Below, one piece after another: positions 2,781 to 22,880 of a stretch of 23,462 nucleotides of DNA (the first letter of the stretch is position 1; the number at the start of each line of letters is the position of its first letter). Origin of the DNA: a virus (lineage: Duplodnaviria; Heunggongvirae; Uroviricota; Caudoviricetes). The DNA lies in IMG/VR virus record IMGVR_UViG_2698536369_000027, positions 1 to 23,462 of that record; one strand, given 5' to 3'. The translations under genes were made by a program, and so were the position numbers. The notes under the pieces were generated by a model that searched no databases, was not told the origin of the DNA, and saw only the letters and a program-made list of their open reading frames with translations.

Positions 2781-3671
2781 TCAGTAGTTATGTACTGAAG
2801 GAGGTAATTCTTTATTCTTAAGTCTCATCCATGCGGAACGATTCGTTGGTCCGTCTGGCTCATTAATATCAACATCTAGTGTGTGATTGATTAAAACGTC
2901 TCTCGCTATATCGATAATACGGGAGAACTCATAACCGCAGTCATGACATCTGCCGGAATAGTTCGATTGAATTTGTTTCAGCGCCGGATACAATTCGCGG
3001 AATAATGCCTGTGAGCGGTTGGCATAATCCCATAACCATACAAGGCTGTTTGCTTCTTTTGCAGAAAGCTCGTTGGTTTTCTTCTCTTGTTTGCCGATAA
3101 ATTCACCTTCAAGCACTACCCTGTGGATGTACTCTACGGCCAGCGGGATTTGTTCAATTGAAAGTTCATCAATGCTGTCAATACCAAAACGCTGATGAAC
3201 CATATTGTATGCATCGTCATAGCGAAGTCCTTTCTTTCCTACCAGCATGTTTACTGCATCGCGTAGCGGTGTGCGTTCAGCTACTGAAGTTTTACCGCCA
3301 ATACTCTTCCTCTCTTGTGTGGCAGTAACCATTGCGTCATATGCACGGATAACCTTCAGCGCAAATGCTGCGCTAATCCACATGGCGTAGGAGTAAACAA
3401 GCTCCTTGCACACGTAGGTTCCACCATATCGACCTTTCTTAGAAAGGACGGGATTCTTATTCTGCATATCCGCAGAATTAAAAATTTCATTAATCAATTC
3501 AATAGTTTCATTTCTACGCATGAAGAAAGCTGGCTGATGTTTTTCCTCCTTTCCAGACGCTACATGAAGGTCATTAAGCGAGTAACGACCCTCTGAATCC
3601 ATATGAATCTTGACGTCAGAAATGATGATGCTATTAGTGCAATTTACAGTTGACTTTGCTAAGCTTGACAT
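2781..3671 (-). CDS. KilA-N domain antirepressor-like protein (in the ant position of an immI region)
   Basis: ORF to stop at 2781; N-terminal region has KilA-N-like motifs (GRYSLNDL ... [29 protein letters not shown]); preferred start is ATG 3669-3671 with upstream GAGG; alternative GTG at 3735-3737 overlaps the upstream ORF stop. Confidence 0.65.
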
Positions 3672-3733
3672 ATCAATAATACCTCGTAAGTTTTGTTGAT
3701 ACCGAAGCCCTGACTGTTCCCGCAGTTGGGGCT

Positions 3734-3955
3734 TCACTGTTTTTGTAAGTCACTGTAGCTATAAAGCCACTGACCACTCATTTTTGATTTGATTGACTCT
3801 ACTGAGTCACGGCAAGGAATGATTCCGCCTGACATCATTCTGATCTCCGTAAATTCACCACTCCTTATCGATTCAATGCCATCAATGTTAACTAAAGATT
3901 TACCTCTACCAAGTGCATTCTCATAGCCAATCTCATCAACCTCAATAAACCTCAT
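3734..3955 (-). CDS. Hypothetical 73-aa protein, translationally coupled to arc
   Basis: ATG 3953-3955 overlaps the arc stop codon (ATGA-type overlap); its own stop overlaps the GTG of the downstream ORF; no recognisable domain. Confidence 0.5.
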
Positions 3956-4110
3956 GCCGTTATCCCCTCTCTCTTCAGGCTGTCCAACACTCGCTTGTAA
4001 ATCTCAGAGTTAACAGATCGCCCGTTCTCTTCAGCTACCTTGCGCACCAAATCCAATACTTCTTTAGGCCACCGCAAATTGAACTGCGGCATTTTGCTCA
4101 TTCCTTTCAT
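3952..4110 (-). CDS. arc: Arc transcriptional repressor (ribbon-helix-helix)
   Basis: Translation [52 protein letters not shown] is near-identical to P22 Arc (53 aa, from memory); ATG 4108-4110 preceded by GAGGTGA RBS; the longer ORF-track start at 4173 would read through its own operator. Confidence 0.9.
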   Translation of the reverse strand: MKGMSKMPQFNLRWPKEVLDLVRKVAEENGRSVNSEIYKRVLDSLKREGITA

Positions 4111-4123
4111 ATTCACCTCACAA

Positions 4124-4146
4124 TATGGGTCCACCGTGAACCTATT
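4124..4146 (-). promoter_or_regulatory. Mnt operator-like palindrome
   Basis: Minus-sense AGGTTCACGGTGGACCC, one mismatch from the P22 Mnt operator core GGTCCACGGTGGACC as I recall it; lies between the Pant -10 and the arc start. Confidence 0.6.
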
Positions 4147-4149
4147 GAG

Positions 4150-4178
4150 AATATAGTAGAGTGCTTCTATCATGTCAA
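4150..4178 (-). promoter_or_regulatory. Pant-like promoter with embedded Arc operator
   Basis: Minus-sense TTGACA - 17 nt - TATATT; the spacer plus flanks read ATGATAGAAGCACTCTACTAT, which matches the 21-bp P22 Arc operator from memory. Confidence 0.75.
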
Positions 4179-4200
4179 TACACTAACTTGGGGTGATGGC

Positions 4201-4455
4201 ATGGCTAGAGACGATCCGCACTTTAACTTCCGTATGCCTTTGGAAGTAAGAGAAAAATTGAAATTAAGAGCAGAGGCTAACGGAAGGTCAATGAACTCTG
4301 AGTTATTACAAATCGTTCAGGATGCTCTCTCAAAGCCATCATCAATTGTAGGCTATCGAGACGAAGCTGAGCGAGTCGCGGATGAGCAATCTGACGTTGT
4401 TAAGAAGATGGTCTTTGAAACGCTGAAAAATATTTATAGCAAAAGTAAGTTATAG
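4201..4455 (+). CDS. mnt: Mnt repressor (maintenance of lysogeny; represses Pant)
   Basis: 84-aa translation MARDDPHFNFRMPLEVREKLKLRAEANGRSMNSELLQIVQDALSKP... is near-identical to P22 Mnt from memory; divergent from arc. Confidence 0.9.
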   Translation: MARDDPHFNFRMPLEVREKLKLRAEANGRSMNSELLQIVQDALSKPSSIVGYRDEAERVADEQSDVVKKMVFETLKNIYSKSKL

Positions 4456-4504
4456 GCTTATGACGTACAGTTAACCATATCGATATTGGCTCGCGTGATG
4501 ACAA

Positions 4505-5224
4505 ATGAAAAAAAGCAATGGACTCACATTAAAACTTGACGGAACCACCCCTGGCCAGCTGTCAATGGCTAAGTTGGTCAAGTATATGTCTGCTCTCGTA
4601 GATCTATACGGTTCTGCAGATTCTGTTCACTTCGACTGTGTAAGTGAAGGATCGGCTGACTTAAATGCATGGGTCGATAATGATATTTGTTATAACGCTG
4701 TCATAGCAAGGGCCTCTCTCTCAGCCAAAGAGAAATCACCCGCGTATCAAAAAATTGTTAATTTACTGGAACATGATGGTTTTTCAGCGAAACTACTCGG
4801 ACGAAACCACTCAACCATTATCGCATTCCCGCGAGTAAAAAAGGAGCCAATCCCTTTACTCATAACAAAAACATCAGAAGTTCAAGGAAGGCTATACAGT
4901 GTTGGCGGAAAAGACAACTCAATACCTGTGCGTATTGAGGGAGCCAACGGTGAAACATTCAAGTGCGAGGCAACCCCTGATTTGGCGGCAGCTCTTGGGT
5001 CCCATCTATTCAAATATATTAGGGTTAAAGGAGATGGGTGCTGGGAAAAAAAGAACAACAAATGGGAGCTAAAGAAACTAAAAATAACTTCATTTGTATT
5101 GCTCAAAAAATCATCACTCAAGGATGCTATTAATGCTATCAAGCAAGTTCCTGGAGATCAGTGGTCCGAGGAACGCGATGTTGATTCAATCCTTAGGACT
5201 CTGAGGAAGATAAATTGCGAGTAA
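4505..5224 (+). CDS. Hypothetical 239-aa protein, first gene of the cargo cassette and partner of the PIN nuclease
   Basis: ATG at 4505 is the first start codon after an in-frame stop; no Walker A, HEPN or other motif seen; AT-rich with K-rich C-terminal third; stop overlaps the downstream PIN gene by 10 nt. Confidence 0.6.
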   Translation: MKKSNGLTLKLDGTTPGQLSMAKLVKYMSALVDLYGSADSVHFDCVSEGSADLNAWVDNDICYNAVIARASLSAKEKSPAYQKIVNLLEHDGFSAKLLGRNHSTIIAFPRVKKEPIPLLITKTSEVQGRLYSVGGKDNSIPVRIEGANGETFKCEATPDLAAALGSHLFKYIRVKGDGCWEKKNNKWELKKLKITSFVLLKKSSLKDAINAIKQVPGDQWSEERDVDSILRTLRKINCE

Positions 5225-5763
5225 TTTTAGATACCAATATTCTGGTATACCTACTATCAGATATAGAACACGATTATAGATTATCTGACCCTATACTTGG
5301 TTCTGAGATTCCAGATGCCAAAAGAAGAGCAGAAGCTCTTGTTGATCGAATAGATAACAAGAACGGGACAATCATCGTTCCAACTCCTGTATTGGCGGAG
5401 TTTTTAGTTGGAATCCATAAAGATTACCAACAAGAAAAACTGAATGTTATCAAATCGTTATCGTGCTTCGAAACTGTATCATTTGATGAGTTGGCTGCTA
5501 TTGAATGCGCATCGATACCAACATTAAAAGAATTAAGGAAAATTAGCACAGAAGGTACAGCAAACAAAATTAAGTTTGACAGACAAATAATAGCAATTGC
5601 AAGAGCAATTAATGCTGACGAGGTATGGACTCATGATAAGGGAGTGTTTGAGCGTTGCAAAAGTCTCAATATTCCTGTGTTCACATTATCATCAATAGAA
5701 CCAATTCCGGTTCAAAGTCTCATGGAGTTCTTACACGATTCAGACGATCAGAGATTACACTAA
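5215..5763 (+). CDS. PIN-domain nuclease (VapC-like fold, 182 aa)
   Basis: TTG start at 5215 with GAGGAAGA RBS 5-7 nt upstream; N-terminus RVILDTNILV is a classic PIN beta1 motif; candidate acidic residues D6, E62 (LAEFLVG), D122 (KFDRQIIAIARA), D141 (WTHDKG). Confidence 0.7.
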   Translation: MRVILDTNILVYLLSDIEHDYRLSDPILGSEIPDAKRRAEALVDRIDNKNGTIIVPTPVLAEFLVGIHKDYQQEKLNVIKSLSCFETVSFDELAAIECASIPTLKELRKISTEGTANKIKFDRQIIAIARAINADEVWTHDKGVFERCKSLNIPVFTLSSIEPIPVQSLMEFLHDSDDQRLH

Positions 5764-5890
5764 AATATAATTTTTATGCATCCGTGATAATTACATCCGT
5801 CACTGATACATAAAGCTATAGCCAAAAGTGGACAAACCTTTATCTCACTCCAAACCATCTGGTATCCTGCTAAAAACTAAGGAGGTTGGT

Positions 5891-6280
5891 GTGAAGCAAT
5901 TTCTTGCTGCTATGTTCTTATTCATATCTTTTGGGGCTACAGCAGAGTGCTGGGTCGTTGGAGATATGCGCGGAATAAGCTATTCAGAACGAAATAATTT
6001 CCATCCGGAAGAAGATGGTTTTAGTGGAACATTCATCATTAAGACAAGCGGTGAAGATGCCAGCATCACATATTCTGGGACAGATGCGGGTGGCATGGCT
6101 TACAAAGCATTGTCTAAAAACTCCATCATAGGAATCGGCGCGAATGGCGAAACTCAACGCGTTATCGACTCATGGGTAATACATCCTACTGGAACAGTTT
6201 TAATGTCAAAAACCATTTCCGGTTATGGAAATATGGATTCAACCAAAGCTTTTGTTGGAAAAGTAAAAAGAAAATGTTAG
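5891..6280 (+). CDS. Small exported protein with N-terminal Sec-type signal peptide (~129 aa)
   Basis: GTG at 5891 preceded by AGGAGG with 5-nt spacing; N-terminus VKQFLAAMFLFISFGATAE is a hydrophobic signal peptide with a likely A-x-A-type cleavage site; the ORF-track start at 5828 is GTG without an RBS. Confidence 0.6.
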   Translation: MKQFLAAMFLFISFGATAECWVVGDMRGISYSERNNFHPEEDGFSGTFIIKTSGEDASITYSGTDAGGMAYKALSKNSIIGIGANGETQRVIDSWVIHPTGTVLMSKTISGYGNMDSTKAFVGKVKRKC

Positions 6281-6304
6281 CGATTGAATCCAATTTCCCA
6301 TACG

Positions 6305-8215
6305 TTACTGCTGTGTTGCCTCAGTAACAAACAGCGGCCTGACGGCATTTGCAGCGTTACTTAACGCTCTTTCATAGGCTGGCGTTCCAGCTTTAGTGTT
6401 TGCCAGACGCAAGAGCGCATTCCTTGCTGCTTTGGACTCGTACAAGCGCATGATTGCACCGAAACCAGCTTCAAGCGCCAGTGTTGCCCCAAGAGTCGCA
6501 GTTGCGCCAATCGTTCTAATCCTGTTAGCTTGCGATTGTCCTGTCTGTGTTACTACATTTGCGGCGTCCGACCTTGCTGTTTGCTGTAGAACTTCATGAA
6601 GAGCATCAAGCTCTTTCATGTGTCTCCCACTGAATATCGTGTTATAGATCTGACCGTCAGATTGCGACTTCAACTTATTTAACTCGGTAAGAAATTTTGT
6701 TGGCGAGTCTCCTGCTTTTTCTGCAATCTTGCTAATATAAGCAGCACGCATAGCGTTCTTTCCATCTTCACTAAGAGCAGGCCATATCCTCTTAATATCT
6801 GATGGTTTTCTGCTGAATACAACACTGTTTATTAGCTCTGGAGTAAACTCTTTTTTAGCTTTGTTGAGATTATTCGCAATCCTTTTATTGAGAACTTTAT
6901 TGAAAACGTTGGAGTAGTCAGAGTTTGCTTTGACGTATCTGGCGGCCTCTCCAGCCCCCAAATACCGCGCTGCGTTATTCCTCAAATCTGCCCCCATTGC
7001 CCTCTCCACGGCATCAGTTGCGGCTTTCGCGCTATTAGGAAAAACCATGGCATCTCCCTGAATACTTTCCCTCAAGGCTGACCGCAACTCTCTCAATAGA
7101 CCAAAATCTATATCTGGTTTAGCAAGTTCTTCTCGCAAATCGGATAACCCGCGAATCAAATCCTTATTTGCCACTTTCCCAAGCCTGTTAGCTCTGGTAA
7201 GTACGTTGTCGATAACCTTAATAGATTTTGATGTGTCAACAGGTGTGTCTCCCATTTTGGTTGTAATGTCTTCAATAACGCTTCCGGCCGAATCCTTCCT
7301 TGACTTCAGAGAACCATACAGATCGTCAACAACAACTGATGGGCTATATTCACCATATTTCTCAAGCTGTTTTTTAACTAGCTGACTTCTTTTTGCATAC
7401 TGCTCCGCTCGCTTTGAGCCTGTCCCGAGCAAAGCCCCCTCGGCATCCTGAGTAAGGCCGCGAGTGAAAGCATTTTTCGGCGGGATAACATCAGATGTCA
7501 TTGGTGTCACGCCCATCGATTCTGATGTGGCAATTTTCTTCGCCACTTCTGGTGCAATATCACCTTTAAAGGCAGTTATTCCACGCTCAAGCCCTTTTGC
7601 AACAGTATTAACAGCACCACCTGTTAGCATGCCAACACCTATATCTGTTGCCAGTTTTCCCGCATCATTTTTCTCACTGTTTGCGGCGAGCGATCCGACT
7701 GCGTTTTCTGCCAGAAGACGGGCTGCGCCTTGAGTAATTCGACCAGCAAGTGTTGGCGCCTGAGTTGAAGCACCGCCAACGCCAACAGTAGCCAGGTAAG
7801 GCAATGCCTCCGCAAACACCCTACCTTCTGTCGTTTGTGGAGTCAGAGCACCTTGCTGAAGTCCAAACGCCTGCTCTAATCCCTGAGTTGTTACTCGTGG
7901 CGCTGGTTGATATGTTCCATCACCAATACCGAGTTTACCGCCAGCCCATGCTGCCGCGCTTGTTACAGCATCGGCAACTGATGCCGGTATGTTTGCCACG
8001 TTTACGCCAGCCTGCACCAGTCCGCGACCAGTCTCTTTTACTGCCTCGCCAAGGTCAGACATAAATCCATCTTGCTGTTCTAAAGGCTGCTCTTGATTCT
8101 GAGTTGGTGGATTACTGGAAGACAGCATCCTAGCAATGCGGCGCGCGCCATCAGTATCACCTGCAGCATCAGCATTCCTTAACGCCGTCATCAATTGTTC
8201 ACGACTATAGGCCAT
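6305..8215 (-). CDS. 16: Ejection (injection) protein, P22 gp16-like
   Basis: 636-aa ORF in the conserved P22 order 7-20-16; start overlaps the gp20 stop; Ala/Gly-rich as in P22 E-proteins. Confidence 0.8.
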   Translation of the reverse strand: MAYSREQLMTALRNADAAGDTDGARRIARMLSSSNPPTQNQEQPLEQQDGFMSDLGEAVKETGRGLVQAGVNVANIPASVADAVTSAAAWAGGKLGIGDGTYQPAPRVTTQGLEQAFGLQQGALTPQTTEGRVFAEALPYLATVGVGGASTQAPTLAGRITQGAARLLAENAVGSLAANSEKNDAGKLATDIGVGMLTGGAVNTVAKGLERGITAFKGDIAPEVAKKIATSESMGVTPMTSDVIPPKNAFTRGLTQDAEGALLGTGSKRAEQYAKRSQLVKKQLEKYGEYSPSVVVDDLYGSLKSRKDSAGSVIEDITTKMGDTPVDTSKSIKVIDNVLTRANRLGKVANKDLIRGLSDLREELAKPDIDFGLLRELRSALRESIQGDAMVFPNSAKAATDAVERAMGADLRNNAARYLGAGEAARYVKANSDYSNVFNKVLNKRIANNLNKAKKEFTPELINSVVFSRKPSDIKRIWPALSEDGKNAMRAAYISKIAEKAGDSPTKFLTELNKLKSQSDGQIYNTIFSGRHMKELDALHEVLQQTARSDAANVVTQTGQSQANRIRTIGATATLGATLALEAGFGAIMRLYESKAARNALLRLANTKAGTPAYERALSNAANAVRPLFVTEATQQ

Positions 8216-10305: not shown

Positions 10306-10761
10306 CTATCTCCCGTGATTCAGGAATTCGATTAGTTCTTCGCGTGTGGCGCTGTAAAATGTCACGTCATTCACGCCTTTGAAGTATTTCTTGATGGTTC
10401 CTACACGCTTAAGGCCAATCATTGCGCAGTACATCTGACCGTGGCGGAATTTGCGTGCGGCGAACGATGTGACGCACTGAACGGTGGTGTTAGTCAGAAT
10501 GTATCGCCAGAACGCCAGCCCGATTTCCTTGCTGAATCCACGAACCTCTGGCAGGTACATGGCGTGGCAATCGAATGTCAGCGGCTGAATCTCCTGATAG
10601 TAAACAATGCCGCCAAACTGACCGTACACGTTAACCTCAAAGTAACGGCATTCAGGCTTGTAGTCGTATCCATCACCGTTGTTGCTTCCGGCAATAATGT
10701 CAGGGTGATTTCCGACTGCTTCGATCAGGTCGATGTTTCGCGTTGGTTTGAACTGAATCAT
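10306..10761 (-). CDS. P22 gp14-like virion protein (by position)
   Basis: ORF between tail needle and gp7; ATG 10759-10761 overlaps the gp26 stop codon by 1 nt; assignment by synteny only. Confidence 0.6.
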   Translation of the reverse strand: MIQFKPTRNIDLIEAVGNHPDIIAGSNNGDGYDYKPECRYFEVNVYGQFGGIVYYQEIQPLTFDCHAMYLPEVRGFSKEIGLAFWRYILTNTTVQCVTSFAARKFRHGQMYCAMIGLKRVGTIKKYFKGVNDVTFYSATREELIEFLNHGR

Positions 10762-11609
10762 CACTGCTCCGCGATTATCTTGATGGTTGTGGCAGTAAAC
10801 GCCGCACCATTTGACTGGATGGTTAACGTACTGCCATTTGTGGCAAGAAATCCGTCTTTATCCACGCTGAAGAACGTAGCTAACAGGATGTTGTCGGTTG
10901 TTGTCGCCGCATTACGACTGCTGACCAACGTGTCAGGAACAGAGCCGGAAAAGGTTAGCTGCATTGACCTGTTTGCGGTTCCACTGGGCCACGTCCCGAC
11001 GATCAACAGCTTGAAGAACAAGGTTTTGTTCTCGTTGAACACAACCATCTTGTTGTTAACGGTGTCGAAGAACGGTGCCAACGTGCCGGATGACGGAGTG
11101 AGCGTTTTCAGCAGGCTAACAAGGTTGGTCGGCGCTGTCGGGATGGTTACAGATACGCCAGAGTAAACAACCTCTGACTTTTTGCGAGTAGTGGCATACT
11201 CCAGAGCATCAATGCGCGTTTCATGGTCTGAAACCTGCGATTCCAGCGACTGAACTCTGGTATCAAGCGAGGCAATATCGCTTTCATTCTGAGCTATTCG
11301 TGTTTCATGTTCCTGAAGAGTTGATTCTGCCTGGCTGATTCGCTCCTCATGATTAACAAGCGTTGCTTCCGCAGCAGAAATTCGCTGCTCATGGTCAGCG
11401 AGAATCACATCCTGCTCATCGTTCCTGACCTGTGCATCATAAGCGCCCTGTCCGGCCTCGTTGGCCTTGTTAGCCACGTTACCAACATCAGTGCCCTGTG
11501 CGATAACGTAAAGCAGATACGACTGCGAGAAGATATTGCGTGGAAGGACTGATGTGTCGAGCCGTGTAGCCTGAATGATTACCGGCACATTGAGATTCGA
11601 ATCCGCCAT
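10761..11609 (-). CDS. 26: Tail needle protein (P22 gp26-like N-terminus with a C-terminal knob extension)
   Basis: N-terminus [43 protein letters not shown]...[18 protein letters not shown] matches P22 gp26 from memory; heptad-like coiled-coil repeats (HE.RI..AE..L); 282 aa versus 233 in P22 implies an added C-terminal domain. Confidence 0.9.
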
Positions 11610-13027
11610 TACTCAATCCTTATCTGAGCGCCAGACAGAGTGACAGGTGACTTCGTGATAACGCGCAATTTGAAGCCGACATTTTTCCTGATTCGCCCGA
11701 CTCGCTTCCACAAAACACGTTTGTCGTAAACGAACGGTTCATTCTGCTCAATCATCTGCTCACGACCGTAATTGATGCCGTCAGTGGTTGCAGAGAGGAA
11801 CAGGCGGTCGGCGTACTGCGCAACGCCAGTTGACGATTCAACCTCAAGGTCGAACACTCTGGCGTTATCCGCTTTGAACAACGGAGTAAACAGCAGGTGT
11901 TCCTGTTGCTTGTCGTACTGGCTGCTGATATCGAATTGCAATTTCCCGGTCACGGACTCCAGCTTATCGCCGCACGTTATCTGATTGCCTTCGTAAATGA
12001 AGTCGATAGCGCGGTACACATCATCATACAGTCCTGTTTTCAGCACACACCATTGCGGACCATTGGCGCTTGAAGATGCGTCGTACACGAGGACGTGACG
12101 CGGAAGATGGATAATCAGCAACTCATGAGCATCAAATCGCAGCGATTCCATCACACCATCAGCCAGTTCATCAGCAGTGTAGGAGCGTAGTATTTTCTCA
12201 ATGCTCGCGCTGGCGATTGGTGATACCTGCCCGGAACCGATGATATACACAGACGGCGCACCTGTTGCCGGATTGCTGATGAACGCATACGAATCAGCAA
12301 ACGGCGTTTTGCAGTAAGTCCCGGCAATACCTTTCTGCACCATCAGCGATGGTTGTGCAACATACAAAGCTGCACCAACGGTGGTTGCACCAGTCAGGGA
12401 AAAATATTCAATCGTCGATGAACCAAAGCAGACGATGAAGTCTCGCCATGTACCTATGCCGATGATGCCGTCCGGCTGCGATTCTGCGCGATATTGTGCG
12501 CTGTAACGGTCAGGATGCGATTCGTCTTCAAGGTCAGTGATAAACCATGAATCCGTGCCGTCTTTTGACCACGCATAACGCCCACGTAAGCGCGTAATGT
12601 CGCGAACCGAACCTAACTCATACTGCGTGAATCCGCTGTCTGTAGGCCAGTTTGAGACGGTTTTAACCGTGCCATCATAACGATACTCGACCAGTTGACC
12701 ATTAACGCCTACAGCCTGAGATGTCCGACCATGCGCCATTGATACACGACCACTTCCGGCAACATCACCGGCTTCGCTTTCGCCTTTGTAGAGCTTTCCA
12801 CCACACACGCGATAAACAGCACTCTGCGCCATGTTGTACTCGACGCCTCGAGATATACCGTTCACATCAGAACGTTTGGCAATGCCCGGGAATGAGCGAA
12901 GATATCCGCTGCTGTTCAGGATTTCTTTGGGTGTAGCCAGCATATTCACTGGCAGATAGTCGATATAGTCGGCGTTTCGAAAGTCTTTGCCGACACCTTT
13001 CATAAGCGGAAGTTGCTGAATCGGCAT
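11609..13027 (-). CDS. 10: Tail accessory (portal-closure) protein, P22 gp10-like
   Basis: 472-aa ORF, same length as P22 gp10, conserved position 4-10-26, start/stop overlaps with neighbours. Confidence 0.85.
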
Positions 13028-13528
13028 TTATTCGCTCCCGTTATCGCAAGGTTCCTTCCGGTGGAAGTAATTCCAACCGTTCCACTTCGCCAACTGGTTA
13101 CCGCTACCAACAGGCATACGGTTTGGATAACCGGACTTACATTTAGCGGCTTTTGCCCTATCCATTGCAGACAGTTTGACGAGTCGCTCTTTCCCGTATC
13201 TGGCAGTGGTTATAAGTTTTGCAGACGCTTCCAGCGCATAATCTGGAGCAATGCGGCAGGCAAGGTTGAAAATGACGGCATTGATAGCGTTATTTGATAA
13301 ACCGTGCTCATCGCCCGGATCCGGAGCAACATCTGCATCAGCAAAAATGTAGCCAACGTTGATACCAGGTGACGCATCACCGCCAATCCATTCAGCCATC
13401 ATCATTTCAAGGTCGTTGACGCCGTCTTCCATAGACTGCGGTTCGACATCTGTTAACGTGGCATTTGATGCCACACCGAGCTTACGTAATGCCGCAAGGA
13501 CTAAATCACCCTTCGTTGTCAGGTTCAT
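13028..13528 (-). CDS. 4: Tail accessory protein, P22 gp4-like
   Basis: From ATG 13526-13528 (AAGGCGG RBS) the 166-aa product [33 protein letters not shown]... matches P22 gp4 from memory; the ORF-track N-terminal extension is rejected. Confidence 0.85.
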
Positions 13529-14099
13529 CTGCTGCCGCCTTAGGTTTTCGACCAGGCTTTTTACGCTGTTTTTCTTCTGGCTCTGGCTCTGCAATAGCCG
13601 GACGCAAACTCAGGAGTCGTCCAAGAACATCATTTGCTTCATGACCATCCCACTCTTTCCCGAACTCAAGCTCAGTACCTTCAGGAAGGAACTCGATTTC
13701 TTCAACAGGTAGGTGATAAGTGATTTCGCCTTCTGGAGTGGTGATACCAGCAATGATCCAGCCATCCCACTCTTCACCGTCACTGTGTTTGCGAGACCAC
13801 CACGAAAGCTCAGCGTAAGCATGCATCAGCGATGAGAAGAGGCGCACTCGGTGAGCGTAAAGCTCGTTAAAAGTGTGATAACCGTCGGACACTTCGCCCA
13901 TATCAACTGGGGAAGTTTCACCTCCGCCAACACTCCTAATGTGATCACCAACAAGAGGATCATCAGGAACATCGTCAGGGTGCTTATACCAGCCATTTGC
14001 TAAGTGCACAGCTACATCATCAGGATCAACGGTTTTCGTTTTCAGCTTGCGTCCCCAGATTTTGGTATCTCCGCCAGCCTGAAAAATCATTACGCTCAT
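13506..14099 (-). CDS. Hypothetical ~197-aa protein inserted between the coat gene and gp4
   Basis: ATG 14097-14099 with GGAGAT RBS; acidic, Trp-rich middle and a low-complexity basic/acidic tail ([26 protein letters not shown]); overlaps the gp4 start by 23 nt. Confidence 0.55.
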
Positions 14100-14118
14100 T
14101 GGTATCTCCAATAGAAAA

Positions 14119-14134
14119 GGGAGCCGAAGCTCCC
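14119..14134 (-). terminator. Stem-loop just downstream of the coat gene (attenuator or RNA-stabilising hairpin)
   Basis: Minus-sense GGGAGC-TTCG-GCTCCC followed by TTTTCTATT; sits between the coat stop (14143) and the next start (14099). Confidence 0.5.
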
Positions 14135-14142
14135 TCTGGTTA

Positions 14143-15438
14143 TCACGCGGTCTGGTTAGGCAGACCAACACCAATTGCCTCTGGTCGTACAGCACATGCT
14201 GAATACCACACAGCAATACGGCACTTACCAGACAGAGTGTTGATATCACCCTGCGTTGCGAAGATGCCGTTAACACCAATACCAGGAATGCTGAAGGAAG
14301 ACGTTTTCATGCCAGCAAACAGTTCATGGGTTACCGGGATCGGCTGAGACAGCAGACGGATTGAGTCATCAGCCCAGAACACGTTAGCGGTTGTTGTTGC
14401 CACGTTCAGAACGTTTACCGGAGTGGTATCAGCAAGAGAGGTGTTTACGTTAGCGTAAGCCTTCTCTTCTTTTGTCAGTGACGCGTCATCCAGTGCAATC
14501 GGTTTCGGCGTGATTTCGATGTGAGTACCATCGATCACACGGGTGATTGAGAAAGTCGCATCATCAGTTAGCACGTTCTTCGCCATCTGAGACAGGAATT
14601 TCACACCAGTGAAACTGATTTTGTCGCCGCGCTTAAATCCGGTGGTGGAGGATACGGTCACCGTTGCAACACGGTTGTCGACGTTCTCTTTGTTACCATC
14701 GGTATCAAGGGTGTATGCCTGCGGCTTAAACTTCTGCGCACCAGAAACAGTTACACCAGTAGCGGTTGACTTGGTAACTGCCGGAAGTTTCGGTGAGCGA
14801 AGAATTTCATCAAAGCCAGCAATCTGACGCTGAATAGTACCGTTGCGATATGCTTCTTCAGGAACGCGCCCGAAGATGTCACCATCTACCAGGTTGCGGC
14901 CTGCTTTGCGGTAATCGTCAGGGTTCAGGAAGTAACTGATGCCCATATCGCGGTTTAGCTCACGGGAGAACATCAGGCGCTCTGCATCAGACACAAAATC
15001 CCAGCCAGACAGGCCAGTAGATGGACCAATTGCGCGGGTATCGTGAACAACAAGTGAGCCCATTTCGGTTGCCTGTTTGGCAATTGCTGACTCAATGTTA
15101 TTCGCCAGTTTTTTGGCGGATGCCTGGATGCGGCTACGGTAAGAACGCTCATCACGCAGGTCATCTGCACGAAGCTCGAAGAAATCGTTATCCGGATCGC
15201 CCATGTTGCATTTCACGGAGAGTTCCAGAATCCCGGTTGCGTTGCCAGTTAAATCCCAGCCAGTCTGCGTTGGCGCTTCCTGCTCAACAGGCATCCACAC
15301 GGTGTTGCTTGAACGTTGCATGGGTTCTGCCGGAGGGGTGTATTTTGTCACTTTGGACGCCATTGGCGTCAGGTTCTGGACGGTTTCGATGATTTCATCC
15401 AGAGCATACGTGACCAGTTGACCTTCATTTAATGCCAT
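14143..15438 (-). CDS. 5: Major capsid (coat) protein, P22 gp5-like
   Basis: 431-aa ORF (P22 coat is 430 aa) directly after the scaffold gene; 1-nt start/stop overlap with scaffold. Confidence 0.9.
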
Positions 15439-16349
15439 TATCGAATTCCTTTATTCAGTTGCGCCTTAAGCTTGCGGTACGTATCTACATCCCCTTTGTT
15501 TGCTGCCGCTTCCATCTGCTTTTCAATCGCAGAGATATTTGCAGCAACAGCGTGCCCCTGAATGGGTTCATCAGGTAACGGGGCTTCTGAAACAGGCTTG
15601 GCTCGAGGCTTGAGAGTTAAACGTTCTGACAGTCGAGTGAGTTCAATCAGCGCGGATTGCCCGTCCATCGCCAGCAACTGGCGTGTTTTCTCAGGATTAG
15701 CACCAAGGTGATACATGAGAGCAGCGGATTTCTCCGGGAAGAGGCGCATGATGTCGGCACCGACTGCTGGCGGCACCAGTTGCATGAATGCATCCTCTTT
15801 CTCCTGATAGTCAGGGATATTGAGCTTTTCCGCTGCGTCGTAGTGCTTACGGGCTGCCTCGACGTATTGCGCTGATTGCTGGGTGAACTCCTGAGTTTTG
15901 CGACCCTGCTCGGCGACAGCCTGGCTTCGTGCGTCCATAGCCTTGATCTGCCATTCACTGTTTGCCTGCTGGAAGGCAGCCAGTGCGCGGCTCTGGTCAT
16001 AGTCGTACTTAGCCAGTGCGTCTTCGGAAAGATAATCGTTAGGGTCTGGTTGTTTTGGTAACTCAGGGTTCACCCGCAGGTGCTCCGGCAACTCTCCCCG
16101 CTTAACCGCTTCCATCTGTTGCTCAAGCTCACGCTGGCGTTTGCGTTCGATGCGGCGACGAGCAAATTCAGCATTAGTTGCCGGGTCTTGTTTTGGTTTC
16201 TCATCGTCTTTCAGGACAATCTCGAAGCCTTCTTCCTGACCTGCGTTGTCGTTGGCATTATCGACAACTAAGCCATCAGCAGATGCCGCTGCATGATTGC
16301 CGGGCAGGGTTAATTCTTCAGAAGCCTGAATGTCGGTGGTTTGGTCCAT
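15438..16349 (-). CDS. 8: Scaffolding protein, P22 gp8-like
   Basis: 303-aa ORF, same length as P22 gp8; highly charged, helix-prone, between portal and coat. Confidence 0.85.
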
Positions 16350-22724: not shown

Positions 22725-22800
22725 TGGTGCTGGTTAACGGACTTGAACCGCTACCCATTCGCTTACAAGGCGACCGCTCTACCATTGGAGCTAAACCAGC
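22725..22800 (-). tRNA. tRNA-Thr (anticodon UGU)
   Basis: Minus-sense 76 nt GCTGGTT-TA-GCTC-CAATGGTA-GAGC-G-GTCGC-CTTGTAA-GCGAA-TGGGT-AGCGG-TTCAAGT-CCGTT-AACCAGC-A-CCA: 7-bp acceptor stem, canonical D and T arms, anticodon loop with UGU, encoded CCA. Confidence 0.7.
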
Positions 22801-22805
22801 ATGTT

Positions 22806-22880
22806 TGGCGGGGCAGCGTGGACTCGAACCACGATAAGAAGGTTAACAGCCTTCCGTAATGACCTTTATACGACTGACCC
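22806..22880 (-). tRNA. tRNA-Asn (anticodon GUU), possibly degenerate
   Basis: Minus-sense 75 nt with anticodon arm GAAGG-CTGTTAA-CCTTC, T-arm CGTGG-TTCGAGT-CCACG and 3' GCCA; one mismatch each in the acceptor and D stems; 5 nt from the tRNA-Thr. Confidence 0.5.

Follow-up and report, generated by a model that had tools for sequence, protein, structure and literature searches.

The gene between the coat and gp4 genes of a P22-like virus of the Caudoviricetes (IMG/VR record IMGVR_UViG_2698536369_000027; the whole stretch of 23,462 nucleotides that was analysed is called the window below) is, we are nearly certain, the long form of an accessory gene of P22-like phages, and its anatomy can be described with the same assurance. 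We refer to its position, behind a stem-loop at the end of the coat gene and overlapping the start of gp4, as the slot. The protein carries a small N-terminal domain, a basic tail and, between the two, a WDGH domain. It is plausible, if somewhat less than probable, that the product of the slot gene is a dispensable accessory protein of the late operon and that its WDGH module acts against host immunity. The slot gene, the hairpin in front of it and its variable length have already been annotated or discussed for P22, Sf6, epsilon34, L and ST64T; the sole new element here is the hypothesis about the WDGH domain, which is based on the domains it is fused to in other proteins.

The locus is read from the minus strand, and its elements are the following:

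14143 to 15438, minus strand: coat (major capsid) gene, 431 amino acids, from the list of open reading frames (ORFs).
14116 to 14137, minus strand: stem-loop ('t coat') with a stem of 9 base pairs (bp) and a C(UUCG)G tetraloop, recognised by its fold, its conservation and the annotation of P22 and Sf6.
14110 to 14118, minus strand: U-rich tail UUUUCUAUU, directly 3' of the stem core; T-rich tails are found in all relatives.
14106 to 14109, minus strand: Shine-Dalgarno sequence GGAG of the slot gene, read from the sequence, 6 nucleotides (nt) 5' of the ATG at 14099.
13506 to 14099, minus strand: slot gene, long form, 197 amino acids and a stop (TGA at 13506-13508), from its translation, its match to PHROG 3769 and synteny.
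13535 to 13541, minus strand: Shine-Dalgarno sequence AAGGCGG of gp4, inside the Lys-Ala codons of the slot-gene tail, 6 nt 5' of the gp4 ATG.
13028 to 13528, minus strand: gp4 head-tail adaptor gene, 166 amino acids, with its ATG at 13528 (PHROG 637, E 4.4e-67).

Judged by its homologues, the coding status of the slot ORF is beyond doubt. The match to PHROG 3769 is full length (residues 1-195 on profile positions 1-186 of 186, E 3.4e-101), and the protein has 1,385 homologues, the nearest of which, at 97% identity, is an E. coli cluster of 1,929 member sequences (P0001). Copies in E. coli prophages that are 99% identical are called 'WDGH domain-containing protein' by RefSeq. The ORF list places a start at TTG 14279, which was rejected as an artefact of ORF calling; the homologues and the ribosome-binding site fix the start at 14099, and relatives of the slot gene have GGAG or GAGG at the same position. 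At its other end the gene overlaps gp4 by 23 nt (13506-13528). The coat gene upstream has 97-98% DNA identity to the annotated 'head protein' of E. coli P22-like phages, and its product bears the RefSeq name 'P22 phage major capsid protein family protein'. The 3' end of the coat gene carries tandem in-frame stops, TGA TAA (14140-14145, minus strand), just 5' of the hairpin. The same TGA TAA is present in the phages CurroJimenez and IME10, and in P22 and ST64T there is a TAA with a second TAA one codon on (TAA CTA ACA...).

An AlphaFold2 model of the slot protein was built with 76 homologues. Read together with its predicted local distance difference test (pLDDT) scores, it divides the protein into four parts:

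13959 to 14099, minus strand, amino acids 1-47: N-domain, a beta-hairpin and a helix with a G-W-x-x-H-P motif (pLDDT ~78-87).
13905 to 13958, minus strand, amino acids 48-65: disordered acidic linker, with pLDDT <50 at residues 48-62, variable and gapped in homologues.
13605 to 13898, minus strand, amino acids 68-165: WDGH domain, Pfam PF25311, a compact alpha/beta domain (pLDDT >95).
13509 to 13604, minus strand: (EP)n spacer and basic tail, disordered (pLDDT ~50), with a PGRKPK motif; related tails occur in P22 orf69 and Sf6 gene 6.

The first-pass annotation of this DNA had described an ORF of ~197 amino acids with a good ribosome-binding site, a UUCG hairpin with a U-rich tail and a 23-nt overlap with gp4, and all of these are there, as are the acidic, Trp-rich core and the charged tail that it had read from the translation. 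It had also called the gene unassigned and had recognised no motif in its product. In fact the gene belongs to PHROG 3769, has 99%-identical copies with the WDGH name in RefSeq and is known as gene 6, orf186 or orf69 in its relatives, and the core is the Pfam WDGH domain.

The match of the window protein to PF25311 covers the family from end to end (profile positions 1-97 of 97, E 1.3e-39, 134.8 bits against a cut-off of 27), and a Pfam scan of the protein to E 1 returned WDGH only. The family is defined by sequence alone. Its signature, S-D-G-x-H-T-F...Y-x-H-R...W-x-S...H-x-D-G...T-Y-H-L-P...W-D-G-H, is complete in the window protein, and each of its residues is invariant or conserved in 90% or more of the aligned sequences. 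A model of the WDGH domain alone reached a pLDDT of 95.2 and a predicted template modelling (pTM) score of 0.84. The family is large: 3,611 representatives of 50%-identity clusters match WDGH (E up to 1e-3), and a phage collection contains 200 WDGH records, with 30-77% identity, from phages of Listeria (54), Bacillus (45), Salmonella (35), Streptococcus (13), Lactococcus (13), Klebsiella (8), Staphylococcus (5) and others. Across 150 of the representatives, 27 positions of the domain are at least 90% conserved, among them S71, D72, H75, E79, H83, R84, H105, D107, H129, W150, D151, G152, H153 and R161. Conservation of this kind, with its many His, Asp, Arg and Trp residues, indicates a dedicated site for catalysis or for binding a ligand or metal.

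As to the fold, sequence and profile searches of the PDB gave chance matches only (E>0.2), and a Foldseek search of BFVD returned only other WDGH or unnamed proteins. Several candidate identities were considered and rejected. The 2H-phosphoesterases, the HD proteins and the metallophosphoesterases do not fit in motif spacing and domain size, and no such Pfam match was obtained. Lockin is set apart by its description as an all-beta hexamer and by its distribution, being absent from INPHARED, and Acb5 is likewise set apart by description and by distribution, being found mainly in actinophages.

Outside the P22-like phages the WDGH domain keeps varied company. It is found in small early or accessory gene arrays (A511 gp21, Lastavirus, the jumbo phage Eowyn, Lactococcus P092), beside a dimeric dUTPase and methylase region in Staphylococcus phage phiSP119-1, between the portal and minor head genes in pneumococcal phage IPP66, and near nucleotidyltransferase and endonuclease genes in Bacillus phages. 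Such varied contexts argue that WDGH is not tied to virion assembly.

WDGH is usually part of a larger protein, with at least 40 residues preceding it in 116 of 148 representatives. Among the best 150 of the 3,611 WDGH representatives, which the tally of fusions covers, the extra Pfam domains were:

crAss001_48 / PF21825 (Sequestin): 6 proteins.
Lar restriction alleviation: 3 proteins.
Acb2/Tad1 hairpin: 1 protein.
Tad2-like (PF11195): 1 protein.
YodL: 1 protein.
Exonuclease (RNase_T): 1 protein.
DUF551: 1 protein.
Zinc ribbon: 1 protein.

WDGH thus shares polypeptides with Sequestin (PF21825), with a Tad2-like domain (PF11195) and with the Acb2/Tad1 hairpin. In 2025 Tal et al. identified PF21825 as Sequestin, a 3'cADPR sponge that blocks type I Thoeris and that was found through its fusion to Tad2 and Acb4 (bioRxiv 10.1101/2025.07.12.664507). 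The fused sponges of that work, Tad2-Sequestin and Acb4-Tad2, consist of small phage-specific domains on linkers, and WDGH proteins are built the same way. One pair of proteins from Serratia fonticola prophage-like contigs illustrates this well. The first (P0101, 265 amino acids) contains a Tad2-like domain, WDGH and Sequestin, and the second (P0121, 160 amino acids) contains the Tad2-like domain and Sequestin; apart from WDGH the two are 99% identical, and WDGH is inserted exactly at the linker between both sponge domains. Since the two proteins differ by WDGH only, the domain behaves as a mobile in-frame module, and its insertion there mirrors its place between N-domain and tail in the P22-like phages.

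Neighbouring genes bring in a further family. In Bacillus phage Nate a NADAR gene overlaps the WDGH gene (3845-5045 of the extracted locus L010), and in Tsamsa a NADAR gene lies one homing-endonuclease-like gene away from it (2833-4563 of locus L014). This neighbourhood, conserved between the two phages, hints at ADP-ribose-related chemistry. We would propose that WDGH binds or hydrolyses a small molecule or some other component of host immunity. An ADP-ribose- or NAD-derived signal is the leading guess for the target, because the fusion partners Sequestin, Tad2 and Tad1/Acb2 and the neighbour NADAR handle such molecules. Taken to its full extent, the proposal would make WDGH an unrecognised and widespread counter-defence family, with a fold that has no solved relatives, acting on an ADP-ribose- or NAD-derived immune signal or a related target, as a sponge or, in view of its conserved site rich in His and Asp, as a degrading enzyme, and carried as exchangeable cargo between the N-domain and the basic tail in a late slot, possibly made late or packaged for the following infection. 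In this extended form we regard it as a tentative and rather doubtful possibility.

The slot itself has been seen in many relatives, and as far as the sequences compared here go, some gene fills it in every P22-like phage. The RefSeq record of P22 has a stem_loop at 6102-6119, followed by orf69 at 6135-6344, which overlaps gene 4 at 6328. In Sf6 the annotation gives a terminator 't coat' and behind it gene 6, in overlap with the gp4 homologue, and in ST64T the same slot holds a gene for 186 amino acids. By tblastn, homologues of the window protein with ~61% identity occupy the slot in ST64T, L (Orf186), epsilon34 and g341c (gene 6), ST104 (ORF54), SE1, BTP1 and others; the identity to Emek, ST64T and similar phages is 61.7%, and 39 phage records have a homologue at 80% coverage or more. 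The members of PHROG 3769 among them (epsilon34 gene 6, orf186 of ST64T and L, ST104 ORF54 and SE1 orf56) agree with the window in slot, architecture and gene 4 overlap, and have 59-62% amino acid identity to it over residues 1-167. The window differs from this group in its E. coli lineage, its longer acidic linker and its AEPEPE spacer.

A second group is made of short forms. P22 orf69 and the E. coli proteins of 74-84 amino acids (CurroJimenez Bas106_0006 and IME10; phrog_1175) lie in the same slot behind the same kind of hairpin, with a homologous N-domain and the overlap with gene 4, but they have neither the linker nor the WDGH domain. Phrog_1175 matches residues 1-44 of the window protein, and the N-domains of the window protein and of the E. 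coli short form share only ~33% identity; the N-domain on its own has no match in Pfam. The K-(K/R)-P-G-R-K-P-K basic tail is kept in long and short forms alike. The tail of the 76-amino-acid CurroJimenez protein is identical to that of the window, and the tail of P22 orf69, which ends in ...KPRKGRKPKAVSDADKD, is related to it. A third kind of occupant is seen in Sf6 gene 6 and HK620 hkbT (phrog_3251). These resemble the window gene in their position behind 't coat', their small size, their K-R-G-R-K-A tail and their 26-nt overlap with the gp4 homologue, but they belong to another PHROG, have no detectable similarity in the N-domain and are without WDGH.

The first-pass annotation had taken the P22 junction to be tight, which the stem_loop and orf69 of the P22 record contradict. 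Among the phages that it proposed for comparison, P22, Sf6 and HK620 have a gene in the slot. It had also held that its view of a moron or accessory virion protein would fall if homologues with a known assembly role occupied this position in most P22-like phages. Homologues are indeed present in the slot of most of them, but none has a known assembly role. The epsilon34 genome paper assigns no role to gene 6 (PMC2629481), and the phage L paper labels orf186 'detailed function unknown' (PMC8022706). In the epsilon34 paper the P22 gene figures as an internal-deletion derivative (PMC2629481), and a passage there that cites Eppler 1991 has the P22 homologue as non-essential. This passage agrees with the first-pass view of an accessory, not a core assembly, gene, and the slot gene would be a dispensable fitness factor and not an assembly protein. 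A literature search for 'orf69 P22' brought up nothing relevant; the ORF69 of PMC5155283 is a gene of the Stx phage Sp5.

Among 5,426 complete E. coli genomes, 217 have the coat/gp4 flanks, and 42 of these 217 carry the long form, at up to 99.5% identity. In one strain, E. coli EC05 (NZ_CM169495.1), two 'WDGH domain-containing protein' features lie beneath an 851-bp match. The slot gene may be split there by a frameshift, which would fit its dispensability as a prophage gene.

From these comparisons the N-domain and tail are a constant scaffold, and nothing else makes up the protein of P22 and most E. coli relatives; WDGH is an optional cassette. The exchange can be followed at the DNA level. 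A BLASTN comparison with CurroJimenez gives 97.6% identity from 14400 to 14105 and 96.3% from 13594 to 13300, with nothing matched between, which defines the exchanged segment:

13595 to 14104, minus strand: mosaic cassette (N-domain, linker and WDGH), replaced relative to the short-form E. coli phages.

A megablast search gives the same picture, covering 40% of the query, flanks only. The cassette, of ordinary GC content, is bounded by the hairpin tail on the left and by the codons of the EP repeat on the right. The spacer at that right boundary is a GAGCCA (Glu-Pro) hexanucleotide repeat of variable copy number (13575-13594, minus strand, AEPEPE; also 2797-2846 of the extracted locus L002), with 2 units in the window and 9 in IME10. 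Among the E. coli short forms, sizes of 74, 76, 78, 80, 82 and 84 amino acids occur. As the right mosaic boundary falls in the repeat, the repeat may be a hotspot of slippage and recombination. In a profile search with the N-domain for a third type of cargo in the slot, the matches listed, up to a limit of 300, were all proteins of 44-84 amino acids, either short forms or partial fragments.

The RNA of the slot also appears to be under constraint. An overlap of 17-26 nt between slot ORF and gene 4, with a common AAGGCGG sequence, is present in the window, P22, Sf6, ST64T and CurroJimenez; this sequence precedes the gene 4 start in P22 and Sf6 just as it does here. Since Sf6 gene 6, a member of another PHROG, keeps the tail, the AAGGCGG and the overlap, the conservation of the tail is partly explained by the translation-initiation region of gp4. 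Upstream, the hairpin core GGGAGC-UUCG-GCUCCC at 14134-14119 extends to 9 bp (14137-14116) and begins 5 nt past the coat stop. In five P22-like phages the hairpin lies 5-6 nt 3' of the coat stop, each time with a T-rich tail, in the following forms:

Window, CurroJimenez and IME10: GAGGGAGC-UUCG-GCUCCCUU.
ST64T: AGGGGC-UUCG-GCCCCU.
P22: AGGGGC-UGCG-GCCCCU.
Sf6: AAGGGGC-UUAC-GCCCCUU.

RNAalifold gives a consensus hairpin of 9 pairs, and at 2 of these both sides change in a compensatory way. The 76-nt context in the window folds at -21.8 kcal/mol (z = -2.6), and 3 of 200 shuffled sequences fold equally well. The hairpin has the form of an intrinsic terminator, with a GC-rich stem of 6-9 bp, 5 G-C pairs and a UUCG loop followed by UUUUCUAUU; a simple terminator scanner missed it because the extension of the stem takes up three U's. 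An Rfam search returned no family at the hairpin, the only matches in the window being the sar RNA and two tRNAs elsewhere. The lambdoid post-capsid stem-loops (P22 6102-6119, Sf6 't coat') are like it in position, GC-rich stem, tetraloop and T-rich tail, and the P22 record describes its own as 'similar in location to stem-loops in phage HK97 and phage lambda'. The window stem differs from these relatives by an extra A-U pair in the core (GGGAGC vs GGGGC) and by its hyperstable UUCG loop.

It is reasonable to suppose, with the first-pass annotation, that the hairpin lowers downstream expression, or else uncouples it. It would act as a partial terminator or as a stabiliser of the 3' end of the coat mRNA, so that coat mRNA and protein would greatly outnumber the products of the head-completion genes that follow. 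The slot gene restarts translation at its own GGAG and ATG behind the hairpin, and gp4 would be translated by coupling to the slot ORF.

Returning to WDGH as a counter-defence module, several points weigh against it and have to be set beside the fusions. The fusions come from ~11 of the 150 representatives and could reflect mere co-residence in accessory islands. The WDGH domain is acidic, with an isoelectric point of 4.6, whereas known sponges have positively charged pockets. Counter-defence genes are normally expressed early, which makes a late-operon position atypical. Lambdoid late transcription is Q-antiterminated, and Q-modified polymerase is expected to pass terminators, hence the usual reading of such a hairpin as a stabiliser or partial terminator; we infer both this action and the coupling of gp4 from sequence. 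A full-text literature search for the WDGH name gave nothing relevant, and in four other phages the immediate neighbours of the WDGH genes are mostly without a Pfam match. In addition, a Pfam search of the window protein (E up to 1) assigned it to none of Tad1, Tad2, Acb1, Acb2, Acb4 and Sequestin, so that its tie to the sponges runs only through the fusions in other proteins, and the PADLOC defence models gave no match to it at E up to 0.001.

The conserved residues could also belong to a small enzyme that uses a metal in phage nucleotide or nucleic-acid metabolism, such as a phosphoesterase with a nucleotide or modified DNA or RNA as its substrate; it would aid replication in general, with no specific link to immunity. 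A domain of 100 amino acids with near-invariant His75, His83, His105, His129, His153, Asp72, Asp107, Asp151, Arg84 and Arg161 would suit such an enzyme, as would the dUTPase and methylase neighbours in phiSP119-1, the nucleotidyltransferase and endonuclease neighbours in the Bacillus phages and the one fusion to an RNase_T exonuclease. We nevertheless consider it unlikely: no Pfam enzyme family or PDB fold was matched, the fusion partners are mostly signal sponges and Lar, and the gene, which would be dispensable, is present or absent among near-identical phages.

The place of the gene in the late operon, between coat and head-completion genes, raises the question of whether the slot protein is a minor virion or packaged protein. 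Its N-domain or its AT-hook-like tail would then tether it to DNA or to the capsid interior, and it would be ejected with the genome to act at the outset of the next infection, possibly with WDGH as the cargo. The basic tail conserved in long forms, short forms and Sf6 gene 6 fits this picture, as does the position of WDGH among the head genes of IPP66, and packaging would reconcile late expression with a role in counter-defence. Yet virion gels of epsilon34, which has the long form, and of P22, which has the 69-amino-acid form, are reported to be near-identical except in three respects, namely gp13, the tailspike and a Dec-like band of 15 kDa (PMC2629481), a result that lends no support to the accessory virion protein considered in the first-pass annotation, at least as an abundant component. 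The P22 gene is non-essential according to the passage cited above, part of the tail conservation is explained by the embedded ribosome-binding site of gp4, and WDGH lies mostly in early regions of other phages. Packaging of the protein is, in our judgement, quite unlikely.

It could further be argued that the slot is selected at the RNA and translation level only, so that any small ORF passing ribosomes from the hairpin to gp4 would serve, with WDGH as a passenger, selfish or neutral. Three ORF families, unrelated or diverged (phrog_3769/1175 and, in Sf6, phrog_3251), occupy the slot, and all keep the Shine-Dalgarno sequence and ATG behind the hairpin and the 17-26 nt overlap with AAGGCGG, and the same passage on P22 has the protein non-essential there. 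But WDGH is 45-77% identical across phages of Gram-positive and Gram-negative hosts, with 27 near-invariant residues in 150 representatives, which implies strong purifying selection on the protein, and the N-domain is conserved at the protein level too. An RNA-level role as the whole explanation is therefore decidedly improbable.

The remaining idea, raised by the first-pass annotation, is that of a moron. A scan of both strands from 12900 to 15600 found no sigma-70-like promoter, against 2.7 +/- 2.0 in shuffled sequences; the scan is consensus-based, and weak or non-canonical promoters could escape it. On the coding (minus) strand the terminator scan found no terminator-like site between the slot ORF and gp4, the only one nearby being at 13014-13026 on the plus strand, at the gp4/gp10 junction. 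The GC content of the slot gene is 0.49 against 0.50 for the operon, and at third codon positions (GC3) it is 0.41 against 0.49-0.54 in the neighbours. The WDGH cassette comes and goes among close relatives, but some gene always fills the slot. A classical moron, transcribed autonomously from the prophage to benefit the lysogen, for example by excluding other phages, deserves hardly any credence: the presence or absence of the WDGH cassette among otherwise ~97%-identical phages, the terminator-like hairpin immediately upstream and the somewhat low GC3 would suit it, but there is no promoter-like site where 2.7 would be expected by chance, the gene has an unremarkable overall GC equal to that of the late operon in which it lies, co-oriented and overlapping with gp4 and with no terminator after it, PADLOC gave no match, and WDGH is common in strictly virulent phages (A511, P100, jumbo phages).

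The counter-defence hypothesis matters beyond this one locus. WDGH is an orphan domain in hundreds of sequenced phages, which include the P100/A511-type Listeria phages used in food safety as well as model P22-like phages, and its repeated fusion to Lar and to sponge domains with experimentally validated action against Thoeris or CBASS provides a testable lead. The same logic of guilt by fusion recently exposed the Sequestin sponge family (bioRxiv 10.1101/2025.07.12.664507). The long-form and short-form P22-like phages, with flanks ~97% identical, are natural isogenic-like pairs in tractable hosts, which makes the hypothesis cheap to test.

Several other features of the window are worth recording. 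At 4505-6280 on the plus strand, opposite to the late operon, there are three co-oriented ORFs of 239, 182 and 150 amino acids with matches to PHROGs 19868, 21691 and 2651. They are flanked by a gene-16-like ejection protein and by the immI (Arc/Mnt/Ant) region, at about the position of sieA in P22, and could be a prophage-expressed exclusion or defence cassette; PADLOC gave no match for the three ORFs. The immI-like region (2781-4455) has an Ant-like anti-repressor at 2781-3737 on the minus strand, Arc/Mnt-like repressors at 3952-4173 (minus) and 4201-4455 (plus), and a sar antisense RNA (Rfam RF00262, 61.7 bits) at 3673-3738 on the plus strand. Genes for tRNA-Thr(UGU) and tRNA-Asn(GUU) are found at 22725-22880 on the minus strand, with the Q-like antiterminator gene on one side and the lysis cassette on the other. 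Finally, the tail-needle (gp26-like) ORF at 10761-11609 on the minus strand encodes 282 amino acids, against ~233 in the annotations of P22 and CurroJimenez, and this greater length suggests a needle of the Sf6/HK620 type with a C-terminal knob.

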